Virus record (IMG/VR): IMGVR_UViG_3300020045_005628 | Span: 1 to 46,581 of that record | Length of the DNA: 46,581 nucleotides | From: a virus | Taxonomy: Duplodnaviria > Caudoviricetes | Direction: 5' to 3' (one strand) | Part shown: one piece after another, positions 1,785 through 26,045 of the stretch | How positions within the stretch are numbered: the stretch's first letter is position 1 | Layout: every line of letters starts with the position of its first letter | The notes under the pieces: generated by a model | The model's input: the letters and a program-made list of their open reading frames with translations, nothing else | The model's database searches: none | What the model was told of the DNA's origin: nothing | Position numbers and translations under genes: made by a program

Positions 1785-1846
1785 CAAATGTACAAATTAT
1801 ACGGATTGGTTTTACAAAACACTAGTAATTTATAGCCATTCTAAAT
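1785..1846 (-). promoter_or_regulatory. Early promoter: -7 element TACATTTG (1785-1792), 13-bp operator (1790-1802), 19-bp palindrome (1828-1846)
   Basis: Matches the Bacteroidota TAnnTTTG/-33 TTTG consensus; architecture shared with other loci. Confidence 0.75.
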
Positions 1847-2292
1847 AATAAATTAATCAAAAAACGAATTAAAAAACATTTTTTACCTTGCGTTTTTTCC
1901 GCAAAATCTTTAAACGCTAATCCGATCAATTCAACATCTGTTGTCTCGATTCCTTCTACAAATATTTTTCCATCTTTTACCTCTAACATGGCGGTTCGTT
2001 TTTAATTAATGTTTCGTGTTTTTTCATCTGAGCTTTCCAAAATTCTTTTAGGCTCCTGGTTGTTTCTAATAAATGAATGAATTTTGCATTTTTAGAATAT
2101 TTATCGATTAGGTTATCGTAATAATCGATTCTCTCTTGTATTTCGGTTTTAGTGTGCATGGTTTTTCTTTGTTTTTAGGTTGATTCTGAGTACAGTTTTT
2201 TTATATCAGAGTATGTGATTACTTTTATGCTATTGGTTTTCATTATTTCTTTCTTTTCGGCTGTTGGTTTTGTTGTCCACCAAAGTAGGTAT

Positions 2293-4186: not shown

Positions 4187-4247
4187 TAAATGTATAAATT
4201 ATACGAATACGATTAACGTTGTTTGGTAGTTTAGAATGATTTTAAAT
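4187..4247 (-). promoter_or_regulatory. Early promoter with perfect 13-bp operator GTATAAATTATAC (4192-4204) and 19-bp palindrome (4229-4247)
   Basis: -7 variant TACATTTA; same spacing as the other copies. Confidence 0.7.
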
Positions 4248-8051: not shown

Positions 8052-8112
8052 CAAAAATACACATTTATTTCAATGTACAAACAATTTTAAGTAATTTGTA
8101 TTGATTTTAAAT
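8052..8112 (-). promoter_or_regulatory. Promoter (-7 TATTTTTG, 8052-8059) with degenerate 19-bp palindrome (8094-8112)
   Basis: 42-bp spacing as in the other copies. Confidence 0.6.
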
Positions 8113-11076: not shown

Positions 11077-11140
11077 CAAATGTACAAATTATACTAATCA
11101 CTTGTACAAATTGTACTAAATTTAGAACCGTTATAAATAA
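11077..11140 (-). promoter_or_regulatory. Early promoter cassette (64-bp repeat, copy 1): -7 element, two 13-bp operators (11082-11094, 11104-11116), 19-bp palindrome (11120-11138)
   Basis: 61/64 identical to 15881-15944. Confidence 0.85.
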
Positions 11141-15880: not shown

Positions 15881-15944
15881 CAAATGTACAAATTATACTA
15901 ATCACTTGTACAATTTATACGAAATTTAGAACCGTTATAAATAA
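15881..15944 (-). promoter_or_regulatory. Early promoter cassette (64-bp repeat, copy 2) with 13-bp operators (15886-15898, 15908-15920) and 19-bp palindrome (15924-15942)
   Basis: 61/64 identical to 11077-11140. Confidence 0.85.
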
Positions 15945-22486: not shown

Positions 22487-22542
22487 AAAAAACGGAAATA
22501 ACCCCTGTTGAGATTATTTCCGTGTTCTGTTAGGCAAATATA
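22487..22542 (-). promoter_or_regulatory. Promoter (TATATTTG 22535-22542) followed by a leader terminator hairpin
   Basis: AACACGGAAATAA...TTATTTCCGTTTTTT; related to 31270-31325. Confidence 0.65.
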
Positions 22543-22552
22543 GTAATTTTAT

Positions 22553-23446
22553 TTAACCTTTTAAAGACTTTTTTATTTGTCGTGCTTCAATACGTAATTT
22601 TTCAATTTCTTTACCTATTTCGATTTGTCTGTTTTTAAGTTTTTTATTGTCAGTATTACAAACAGGATCTTTAATTAAATAATTTCCATTTCCTTTATAC
22701 TCTAAGTTGTACTCTATTCCATTGACAAAAACAGTTTTTAAATCATTAATTGTTAGCTTAGGTAATATTCTTTCAAAACTACAATATTTAAAATCATCTT
22801 TAGGTATAGGACTGCAGTTATTCTCACAATCAATTTTAGGCTTACACACCCTTTGTAACTCCTTATCGGCTTTTAGCATTTGTTCGTTGAAGTCACTACT
22901 TAAATCAGGTTGTGTTTGTTTTTTGTTTTTTATTAAATCAGACATTATTTTTTCGTCTAAATACTTACTAAACAAAAATCTTCCACTAACTTCTTTACCA
23001 TCAACAGGAGCAAACCCGAACGGCTGAGAATCATTTAAACCTTTTTCTTTTAAGAATTTGTTTAGCTGTTTGCTCCATTCTTCGTAAAATTGTGTTTTTC
23101 CGGACCTAAAACCACCTTCATAAAAAACATTTTTAATTTCATTTAATACATTTTCATTTTGTTTATTATCAGGAAACTTTATATCCCCTTTTTTTAAAGC
23201 CATTTCAAAAGCATCCATTAAATGGCTTCTTGCATCTTCTTTTGCTTTAGGATTATCGAAAATGTGTTCTTGGTACTTTATACTATCCTGAATAATTTCA
23301 GGCTTGTTAATGCTTCCTTTTTTGTAATCCGGAATAGGTTTTGGTGTCATAGCTAATTTTTCAATTTGCCTTTTCTCTAACTCAATTGCTGATTTAAAAA
23401 GATCGTTAATGGAATTGATTAATTTGATGATTCCTTTTGTTTTCAT
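22553..23446 (-). CDS. Hypothetical mosaic protein with terminase-like and tape-measure-like motifs
   Basis: 297-aa ORF containing PIPDYKKG, SHLMDAFEMA and YEGGFRSGKT. Confidence 0.7.
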   Translation of the reverse strand: MKTKGIIKLINSINDLFKSAIELEKRQIEKLAMTPKPIPDYKKGSINKPEIIQDSIKYQEHIFDNPKAKEDARSHLMDAFEMALKKGDIKFPDNKQNENVLNEIKNVFYEGGFRSGKTQFYEEWSKQLNKFLKEKGLNDSQPFGFAPVDGKEVSGRFLFSKYLDEKIMSDLIKNKKQTQPDLSSDFNEQMLKADKELQRVCKPKIDCENNCSPIPKDDFKYCSFERILPKLTINDLKTVFVNGIEYNLEYKGNGNYLIKDPVCNTDNKKLKNRQIEIGKEIEKLRIEARQIKKSLKG

Positions 23447-23462
23447 GGTTTAGTTTTTTGAA

Positions 23463-23600
23463 TTAATTTGTAATAACAATCGTTGTAGGTATAATAATAG
23501 CAAAAACAGCAATAAAATGTAACGCCCATATAAAAACAGATGTTAACCATCCTAAATCCTTTGGGCATTCTATAAATAATTCGTGAAAATAATTTTTCAT
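23463..23600 (-). CDS. 45-aa membrane micro-protein
   Basis: MKNYFHELFIECPKDLGWLTSVFIWALHFIAVFAIIIPTTIVITN. Confidence 0.5.
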   Translation of the reverse strand: MKNYFHELFIECPKDLGWLTSVFIWALHFIAVFAIIIPTTIVITN

Positions 23601-23603
23601 AAT

Positions 23604-23711
23604 TTACTTTTTAGCTTGTTTTTTAATTAAACTATCAGCGTAAGTTTTGGCTTTCTGTTTAGTTTCTTTTGATGTTTCTGAAAGGATTTTTGATGCGGTT
23701 TTGCTTCTCAT
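23604..23711 (-). CDS. 35-aa basic micro-protein
   Basis: ATGA-coupled; MRSKTASKILSETSKETKQKAK... Confidence 0.5.
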   Translation of the reverse strand: MRSKTASKILSETSKETKQKAKTYADSLIKKQAKK

Positions 23712-23980
23712 AATAAATTTAATTGATTAGGAATTAAAACGCCTTTTACGGTTTGTGTTTTATTTGAGTTAATTTCAAACTCACCGTTTTTTATACGCTT
23801 TAAAAGATTAGAATTAACCATACGACTAAGAACATCGCCAACGTGTTTTTGTTCATTACAGTAATAGAAACTACCAATTAATTCAACAGCTTGCTTCTTA
23901 GTTATTTTGTTGTTATTCTTAAAAGCAAAATCTAATAGCATTTTTTGTTTATCTCCTATCATAATATTTCTTTTTTCCAA
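23708..23980 (-). CDS. Winged-helix DNA-binding protein
   Basis: KQKMLLDF....NKITKKQAVELI...VLSRMVNSNLLKRIKNGEF wHTH pattern. Confidence 0.65.
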   Translation of the reverse strand: MEKRNIMIGDKQKMLLDFAFKNNNKITKKQAVELIGSFYYCNEQKHVGDVLSRMVNSNLLKRIKNGEFEINSNKTQTVKGVLIPNQLNLL

Positions 23981-24153
23981 AATCCATCACGGAATTTATC
24001 GCTTTTTGGTTCAGTACTCGTTTCAGTTGTATAATCAACTTCTAAAAGTTCTTTATCGATTGCAATTACAGTTCCAAAAGCGCGTTTATCATCGTATTCA
24101 AAGTAAACTATATCGCCTGGATTTATCTGTTTAGGGTCTGAAAATAAGCTCAT
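23959..24153 (-). CDS. Small SH3/Tudor-like protein
   Basis: PGDIVYF......GTVIAI beta-barrel-like pattern. Confidence 0.55.
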   Translation of the reverse strand: MSLFSDPKQINPGDIVYFEYDDKRAFGTVIAIDKELLEVDYTTETSTEPKSDKFRDGFWKKEIL

Positions 24154-24408
24154 TTATTTTCTTTTTTTTACTTCATCACTCCATACATAACGCTCCTGAA
24201 TCTTAACTATTCCTATTTTAACCAAAAGACCAACGAACAAGTAAGCCGATGCGTTTGTAACTCCGTTTGATGCAGCGTGATTTAACAACTCTGTAATGCT
24301 AAATTCTTTCATCGATGCAACGCATTCTATTAAACTTGTGCGTTCTTTTGTCCTACGCATTTTATTTGCTGTTATGTAGGCTTCTATTTGGGTTTTTATT
24401 GATTGCAT
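24154..24408 (-). CDS. Truncated Fur-family protein (N-terminal winged-helix domain only)
   Basis: Y..AN..R.T.ER..LIE......FS..EL......V..AS.Y....LLV..GIV aligns by eye with the Fur DNA-binding domain; no C-terminal metal/dimerisation domain. Confidence 0.7.
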   Translation of the reverse strand: MQSIKTQIEAYITANKMRRTKERTSLIECVASMKEFSITELLNHAASNGVTNASAYLFVGLLVKIGIVKIQERYVWSDEVKKRK

Positions 24409-24411
24409 ATT

Positions 24412-24606
24412 TTAAATTTCTACATATATTTTTACATCTACTCTTTCAGGAATTTTGTTTCCAGAACCACCTTCAATAAAATACGTTTGGTTTACATTTA
24501 TTGAAATATCACAATCACCATTTCTATTTATGAAATCTAATACTAATCTTTGTACTGCGGCTTCTAACTGGTTGATTTCTTTTTTAATTTCTTCTGTTTT
24601 TGTCAT
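24412..24606 (-). CDS. Hypothetical protein
   Basis: 64-aa ORF. Confidence 0.65.
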   Translation of the reverse strand: MTKTEEIKKEINQLEAAVQRLVLDFINRNGDCDISINVNQTYFIEGGSGNKIPERVDVKIYVEI

Positions 24607-24623
24607 TTTTAGGTTTTTAATAA

Positions 24624-24716
24624 TTAATATTTACATACCCAAATTAGCAAGGCTAATCCAGCAAAGAAAGCGAATATTACATATGCACATCCTTTCATTT
24701 CTTCTTTTTCTTCCAT
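24624..24716 (-). CDS. 30-aa single-TM micro-protein
   Basis: MEEKEEMKGCAYVIFAFFAGLALLIWVCKY. Confidence 0.45.
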   Translation of the reverse strand: MEEKEEMKGCAYVIFAFFAGLALLIWVCKY

Positions 24717-24720
24717 TGTG

Positions 24721-24852
24721 TTAATATTTACAGATATTCCCTTTGTTCCCGAAAAGAAACTTTGATACTCCGTTGTAAACTCTTTCTAAATCTGAATTAA
24801 TAGTGATTAATAAAGATAAAGCAATTACTGATAAAAATAATGTTGTTGTCAT
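24721..24852 (-). CDS. 43-aa micro-protein with N-terminal hydrophobic segment
   Basis: MTTTLFLSVIALSLLITINSDLERVYNGVSKFLFGNKGNICKY. Confidence 0.5.
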   Translation of the reverse strand: MTTTLFLSVIALSLLITINSDLERVYNGVSKFLFGNKGNICKY

Positions 24853-24890
24853 AATGGTTTGTTTTTAATTGTTATTTGTTTAAAAAAAAA

Positions 24891-24921
24891 AGCCTTTTTA
24901 CATCATGCTCAGGATTGGTGG
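24891..24921 (-). other. Repeated 31-nt RNA motif (copy 2)
   Basis: 27/31 identical to 1528-1558; followed by a long U-run. Confidence 0.6.
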
Positions 24922-24925
24922 TGTT

Positions 24926-25180
24926 TTACTTAGATTCTATTTCATCGTTAAAAACAGAGCTTTTTAAATCTTCTAAATTAGCAAAAACTTCTTGTTCTTT
25001 TAAAATATTGTATCCAACAGCGTAAACTATTTGCTTTTCTCCTTCGGGTACTTTGTACGTTGTATAATCAATTTTCACCTCTCCTTCTATAGAGATAATA
25101 GACTTTACTTCTCCTGATTGAGGTTTGTTTGATTGCATAAAAAATACAGTTGTTCCGATTTTAAAGTTTTCTTTTTTCAT
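24926..25180 (-). CDS. Hypothetical protein
   Basis: 84-aa ORF, first gene of the accessory operon. Confidence 0.7.
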   Translation of the reverse strand: MKKENFKIGTTVFFMQSNKPQSGEVKSIISIEGEVKIDYTTYKVPEGEKQIVYAVGYNILKEQEVFANLEDLKSSVFNDEIESK

Positions 25181-25217: not shown

Positions 25218-25299
25218 TAAAAATAGTAAATTATACTTTACCGCCAAACTTATTTATACTTTTTTTAGTTAAGTAGTGTTATTTAAAACGGTTCTTAAT
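25218..25299 (-). promoter_or_regulatory. Promoter of the mini-Fur operon with partial 13-bp operator and 19-bp palindrome (25281-25299)
   Basis: -7 candidates at 25218-25225 or 25245-25252; ATTTAAAACGGTTCTTAAT. Confidence 0.55.
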
Positions 25300-25579: not shown

Positions 25580-25599
25580 AATTTATATTTGTTTTTAAG

Positions 25600-26030
25600 T
25601 TAATTACTGTTTAGGAGTTAATGTGTTGATGTTACTCATTCAATTACTCTTTAGATTTTAAGGTTAAGTGGTTGTTAAACGTAGTTACTAAAAGTAGACA
25701 AAAGTAACCACGTTTAAACTAAATCACTCTTCGAGTTTCTCGGAATCGTTTAGCCAAACTTTACACACAGCTATGAAAGCATTAGTTTAAAACTACTTTG
25801 TTGTATTTGCTGTGTTTAATTGCTCGATCCAATATTATTATCTAATAAAGTTTGTGAAGTTTTTTATTGTGAACCTGACTAAACACACAATAAGTTTTAA
25901 AAGTGGCGTATAAAACAAAACCCTTAAGACAAGGGCTGAAGTTGTTTTAAGGGTTGTATATGTTTCAAATACGAGATAAAAAACAGATTGGTTACAATCC
26001 GTTTTCAGCCCGTATTGCATTGCAAATATA
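25600..26030 (-). other. Structured non-coding region behind a promoter (TATATTTG 26023-26030)
   Basis: At least four hairpins and no convincing ORF. Confidence 0.45.
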
Positions 26031-26045
26031 ATCCTTATTTTGATA

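Follow-up and report, generated by a model that had tools for sequence, protein, structure and literature searches.

We found that a phage genome assigned to the Caudoviricetes encodes a small protein consisting of the Fur DNA-binding domain only, and that six promoter regions of the same genome carry Fur-type boxes that are likely candidate sites for the Fur of the host. The protein, which we call mini-Fur, resembles a working Fur DNA-binding head yet is not a Fur, and it is one member of a phage mini-Fur clade rather than a one-off. Our best reading, held tentatively and at slightly less than an even chance, is that mini-Fur is an iron-blind accessory occupant of Fur-type operators; judged from its sequence, it likely lets the phage override the host iron switch.

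The whole stretch of DNA analyzed, hereafter the window (46,581 nucleotides; IMG/VR record IMGVR_UViG_3300020045_005628), is a complete 46.6-kb phage genome with direct terminal repeats. Nearly all of its genes lie on the minus strand, and they include terminase, portal, tape measure, endolysin, RecT, and replication genes. Among those window proteins that were scanned, we detected neither an integrase nor a repressor, and no helix-turn-helix regulator besides mini-Fur. We took the host group to be Flavobacterium because the bacterial loci bearing a 33-aa module (see below) were Flavobacterium in 7/7 cases. The mini-Fur gene (24154 to 24408, minus strand) lies in an operon of small genes (22553 to 25180, minus strand) that is inserted among the tail genes and closed by a terminator-like hairpin at 22492 to 22523; no terminator-like site was found on the minus strand between the operon promoter and the gene. 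The same gene order was seen in one diverged metagenome contig.

The open reading frame encodes an 84-aa protein that contains the sequence given in the original prediction. By itself, the window mini-Fur gave no Pfam FUR match at an E of ≤1; in its close family, 8 of 10 members matched PF01475 within positions 1 to 61 of 121 (best E, 1.4e-4, under the cut-off), and a Pfam scan of 93 relatives returned any match for 80, with FUR ranked first in 80/80. When a profile of 36 full-length Furs was compared with the six frames of the window, the sole match was at 24202 to 24411 (profile positions 6 to 78 of 153; iE, 1.4e-15), although 30 of the 36 Furs had been gathered with the mini-Fur family's own profile and the test is thus partly circular. 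The structural model (pLDDT, 89.5) has four helices and a shortened wing, with no wing strands and no hairpin in the monomer. Fur-family structures took ranks 1 to 12 in a Foldseek search with this model (E, 0.035 to 0.31; none below 0.001) and ranks 1 to 7 in VIA (best Z, 8.3; rmsd, 2.2; 73 residues aligned), with Fur, PerR, Zur, and Mur placed first; a BFVD fold search returned generic helix-turn-helix matches only. The Pfam ranks of the relatives, the host-Fur profile matches, Foldseek, and VIA together bear out a Fur-type N-terminal winged helix. The original prediction would have been undone by generic winged-helix hits showing no preference for Fur, but both profile and fold searches favored Fur, and the winged helix is homologous to Fur over other winged helix-turn-helix proteins.

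The metal-binding and dimerization domain, which had been proposed to be missing, is indeed absent: a host-derived profile of the Fur C-terminal domain found nothing in all six frames of the complete genome (best iE, 3.4), and the site-1 His is gone. Nine relatives with 47 to 70% identity, at 81 to 88 aa, all end equally short, so the shortness is not a frameshift artifact. A search for longer forms (155 to 2000 aa) found none among 7998 candidates, which is weak evidence.

We compared the residues of mini-Fur with those that bind DNA or metal in MgFur, for which PMC4506495 lists K15, T17, R20, T54, and Y56 as contacting DNA. MgFur itself is not in our alignment, and its residues were mapped by motif and via Mur; the counts refer to 32 mini-Furs, a set that excludes P0007 and several odd forms. 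The window protein keeps the contacts to the backbone, the minor groove, and thymine (R18, T20, R23, S54, and Y56). The equivalents of MgFur T17, R20, and Y56 (T20, R23, and Y56) were conserved in 32/32 mini-Furs, and that of K15 was Arg or Lys in 28/32. Compared with MgFur (PMC4506495) and the Furs of Riemerella anatipestifer (PMC5609570 and PMC7976709) and Flavobacterium, mini-Fur has the same N-terminal winged helix, R-x-T-x-E-R motif, Ser/Thr pair, and Tyr56, but it is phage-encoded, falls in a separate clade, lacks the C-terminal domain and the site-1 His, and has a shortened wing and a Leu at the base-reading position. The site-1 metal His (MgFur His33) was present in 0/32 mini-Furs, compared with 4/4 host Furs and 17/30 other full-length Furs, and the regulatory metal ligands (His33 and the His/Glu of the C-terminal domain) are missing from the window protein. 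The wing is about 6 to 8 residues shorter throughout; its strand may pair between two mini-Fur copies.

The position after Tyr56, which reads bases, is Leu in the window protein and Phe in 8 of the 9 close members (Leu or Phe in 9/9). It is Asn in 4/4 host Furs and in 14/17 members fused to the 33-aa module, and Asn or Arg at this position is described as a PerR/Fur marker in PMC8638967. Since Leu/Phe replaces Asn here, and since R57A abolished binding in MgFur (PMC4506495), faithful box reading by the close subfamily is doubtful. Mini-Fur is not a Fur, given that it lacks two defining features as well as the usual base-reading residue. Of the proposal that a metal-blind mimic binds Fur boxes constitutively, the metal-blind half therefore stands, the metal ligands being gone, but the box-binding half is weakened by the Leu/Phe change.

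A family profile retrieved 85 proteins among 1.84 billion representatives. The wider family profile matched 391/401 Flavobacterium genomes, almost always once among the matches listed (150 of 395), and 30 distinct proteins translated from the Flavobacterium fur loci were full-length host Fur. In a tree of 89 columns, in which 7 long or odd rows were left out and the bootstrap had not settled, a starred clade held 33/34 core mini-Furs (98/87), separate from host Fur. Three truncated forms, including the Freya_1 protein, grouped nearer host-type Fur (AU p, 0.013, for a group named after the first tree had been seen). Close-family scans yielded 0 loci in viral contigs, 0 in genome contigs, and 1 in metagenomes (1257 bp); a viral-contig scan with P0011 as the query likewise gave 0 close-family loci. 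The protein of the Polaribacter phages Freya and Danklef is annotated in GenBank as a "ferric uptake regulator family protein." Like mini-Fur, it has a Fur DNA-binding domain but no Fur C-terminal domain, and its phage carries boxes (three Fur-type boxes in Freya_1); it differs in being closer to host-type Fur in the tree and in having the module at its C terminus. The words "ferric" and "iron" are absent from the main text of PMC8776804, whose supplements may bear on the Freya protein, and a literature search, mostly outside subscription journals, found no description of a phage-encoded truncated Fur or of Fur boxes in flavobacterial phages.

It could be argued that the gene is a nonfunctional remnant of a captured fur gene, given that the window copy has diverged further around the recognition helix than any other member of its group and that the gene is patchily distributed. 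We consider this very improbable, as the ten intact copies, at 47 to 70% identity, share 32 invariant columns, the DNA contacts are invariant across the 33 proteins of the starred clade, and the gene order is kept in a diverged relative.

The 19-bp palindrome that had been pointed out at 25281 to 25299, by the mini-Fur operon promoter, is present, though it is the weakest of six. It lies 28 and 55 nt from two candidate Bacteroidota -7 elements of that promoter (25245 to 25252 and 25218 to 25225, minus strand; consensus TAnnTTTG [PMC9723704]). The others are found before the recombination (RecT) operon (15924 to 15942), before the Orf/NinB early operon (11120 to 11138), before the RNase H and replication initiator genes (8094 to 8112, a weak box), at 4229 to 4247, and inside the 3' end of the module gene (1828 to 1846). 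The distance to the -7 element is 35 nt for the RecT, Orf/NinB, and module-gene boxes and 34 nt for the remaining two, so that five of the six stand 34 to 35 nt upstream of a -7 element (background, 0.0045 per position) and about 10 nt upstream of the -33 element. Their fit to the Riemerella Fur box, predicted as ATTTAGAATTATTCTAAAT with EMSA on promoters in PMC5609570 (whose abstract prints the E. coli consensus rather than the Riemerella box), was 1 to 2 mismatches over 16 arm positions at five sites and 3 or more at the sixth. At up to 2 mismatches from the consensus, the window count is 5, compared with 0.2 expected (15 simulations). The box center is often CCG. With a host-trained matrix, which is partly circular because the 26 host sites behind it were themselves found by consensus, six window sites scored at least 12.1 bits (12.1 for the mini-Fur operon box and 12.2 to 19.1 for the other five), a number reached in 0/1000 simulations.

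Further support for the Fur box comes from EMSA, box deletion, and Mn dependence (PMC10986502, PMC11967795, and PMC7976709, respectively). In 20 hand-chosen host regions, 16/23 sites were intergenic; 7 of these 16 stand before clear iron, heme, or Fe-S genes, 4 before plausible ones, and 5 before others, and the motif sits before Flavobacterium TonB receptor, hemA, SufS-type, and flavohemoglobin genes. The Riemerella consensus, the host-trained matrix, and these sites before iron genes agree with the earlier description of the palindromes as Fur-box-like. At 2 mismatches, the consensus showed no genome-wide excess in four host genomes (20/27/30/23 against 18/23/29/39 in controls). An overlapped form of the box was in excess in host genomes (16 against 2 in the control), with three of the 16 in prophages, and the genes downstream of it resemble TonB receptors by their N termini.

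Unlike the documented Flavobacteriales Fur box, the window boxes lie upstream of -33 at early promoters, whereas at the late scaffold and portal promoters of relatives the box lies over -33, 13 to 16 nt from -7. No box was found at the late promoters of the window, and no overlapped box was found in the window. The upstream placement suggests activation by host Fur, box geometry being the ground for this proposal. Elsewhere, one box appears to face two directions (L067, L071, and L085 at 1501), being 14 nt from a late -7 and 34 nt from another -7. In two Flavobacterium prophages (L072:1501 and L074:1501), a Fur-type box precedes the start of a gene for a CI-like repressor by 8 to 11 nt. Two loci without mini-Fur, L005 (G004) and L006 (G005), have 4 and 7 Fur-type boxes, several of them at 35-nt or 55-nt spacing.

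We then asked how boxes and mini-Fur are distributed across 12 viral records at least 90% complete, chosen by box or module and not at random. Of these 12, 4 have the domain and 8 lack it. All five other near-complete mini-Fur phages (the 4 records G009, G010, G012, and G037, plus Freya_1) had Fur-type boxes, and so did 8/8 near-complete records without mini-Fur; these co-occurrence records lie outside the close mini-Fur subfamily, which has no long contigs. One relative in which we found no mini-Fur shows the same early-promoter layout. The original prediction envisaged that the gene and the boxes could form a phage circuit, but such interdependence is not borne out by the 8/8 gene-less records and by this relative. 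Since the boxes occur in 8/8 records without mini-Fur, host Fur is likely the reader of the phage boxes and mini-Fur an accessory. An impression that mini-Fur phages are without boxes proved wrong, since mostly the overlapped form is present. At the orthologous scaffold promoter, that form was found in 14/15 phages with mini-Fur and in 4/20 without (Fisher p, 2e-5; typed by eye), but with only 3 independent pairs, coevolution of box type with mini-Fur was unsupported after tree correction. At the promoter of the scaffold-like gene in L011 to L065, the single 19-bp box and the overlapped 25-bp box switch at least 7 times on the tree.

On the occupant reading, the phage has captured the DNA-binding domain of a Fur, minus the metal site and the dimerization domain. 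Iron-loaded host Fur would bind upstream of -33 and turn on the early operons, including the mini-Fur operon, and mini-Fur would then occupy these AT-rich sites, recognizing their shape and thymines, either as a dimer with itself or beside a host dimer. Fur-linked transcription of the phage, and perhaps of the host, could thereby become iron independent, and mini-Fur would be an accessory tuner of the host-Fur switch, not its core. The Fur-specific homology, the retained contacts, the Asn in 14/17 fused members, the boxes in all 5 other mini-Fur phages, and the six window boxes, with five of them 34 to 35 nt from -7, argue for this reading. The Leu/Phe in 9/9 close members, the lack of a dimerization domain, the shortened wing, the occurrence of boxes without the gene, the derivation of activation from geometry, the lack of a host-genome excess at 2 mismatches, and the unsupported link to the overlapped box argue against it. 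A bolder version is possible but in our view less probable. In it, the promoters of flavobacterial phages would be tied to the iron sensor of the host, and the Fur head would have been captured at least twice, together with a partner module, as an iron-blind anti-Fur override; during infection, this would lock transcription of the phage and rewire the iron regulon of its host.

A second, 13-bp palindrome bears on another explanation, namely that the phage has repurposed the domain as a regulator with a separate target, leaving the boxes to be read by host Fur alone. This palindrome, GTAYAAWTTRTAC, occurs in six perfect copies at the four promoters with the strongest boxes (0.69 expected at one mismatch): two copies over -7 and -33 at 11082 to 11116, two in the same arrangement at 15886 to 15920, and single copies overlapping -7 at 1790 to 1802 and 4192 to 4204. 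The precedent is GIL01 gp6, a truncated LexA that, according to PMC6182141, recognizes a palindrome of its own over -35 and switches on the late promoter, with host LexA binding its boxes. Both phages carry boxes of a host regulator and encode only its DNA-binding domain (in gp6-like fashion, the window has the Fur DNA-binding domain alone alongside host-type boxes), and, as with gp7, there is a further small protein that might serve as a partner. Here, Fur replaces LexA, the sequences are unrelated, and our system is known from its sequence alone. Such repurposing would also account for the fixed change of Asn to Phe or Leu with every other contact kept, and for six copies of a second operator in a genome whose scanned proteins include no other helix-turn-helix regulator. 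The second palindrome is absent from the mini-Fur promoter, however (best, 3 mismatches), and from every mini-Fur locus of L001 to L074. One relative (G453, 92% complete) has a copy 24 nt after a 3-mismatch Fur-type box, which is the window's spacing, yet no mini-Fur candidate was found in it in a loose first look at this one genome. Among 20 viral stretches matched by the second palindrome, 1/20 was a relative and 0/20 had a mini-Fur, so that it is doubtful as the mini-Fur site. Overall, we regard repurposing as possible but less probable than the occupant reading.

The window also encodes a stand-alone 55-aa protein (1822 to 1989, minus strand) made of a 33-aa module (E, 3.2e-14) that in related phages is joined to mini-Fur. 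The module precedes the Fur domain in many phages, follows it in Freya_1, and is separate from mini-Fur in the window, L041, L042, and L055; two lineages of truncated Fur bear it (AU p, 0.013; the group was named after the first tree). It matched no PHROG family, and the window copy matched no Pfam family either. In L024 to L066, it occurs alone or fused to mini-Fur or to other tails, and it is common near Flavobacterium-phage terminase genes. These arrangements are consistent with a role in protein contact, in which mini-Fur would dock on host Fur via the cross-dimer surface of the DNA-binding domain, or pair with the module, altering or blocking Fur; on DNA, Fur dimers touch each other via helix 3 (PMC4506495). 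We consider this unlikely, however, because the module shows no homology to the Fur dimerization domain, occurs without the Fur domain in many phages, and is encoded 22 kb away from mini-Fur in the window. That the module is a permuted Fur dimerization domain was hinted at by one alignment but was dropped, the hhalign probability being only 0.1 to 0.5%. The model of the 55-aa protein has three short predicted strands plus helices, and fold searches with it gave nothing clear (best Foldseek E, 4.3; best VIA Z, 4.2), which leaves a permuted domain possible.

Iron limits flavobacteria in water and in hosts. If the occupant reading is true, a phage that heeds host Fur and adds an iron-blind head would link the outcome of infection to iron and could reprogram iron uptake. 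Freya and Danklef are cultured phages with a related gene, and among family members the base-reading position naturally varies between Asn, Phe, and Leu.

Two minor features of the window were also seen. A 32-nt repeat (88% identical) lies at 1528 to 1559 and 24891 to 24922, just past the first gene of two boxed operons; it folds weakly, and an Rfam search gave no match. The stretch from 25580 to 26045 is mostly gene poor, with about 330 to 420 nt conserved in two other metagenomes.
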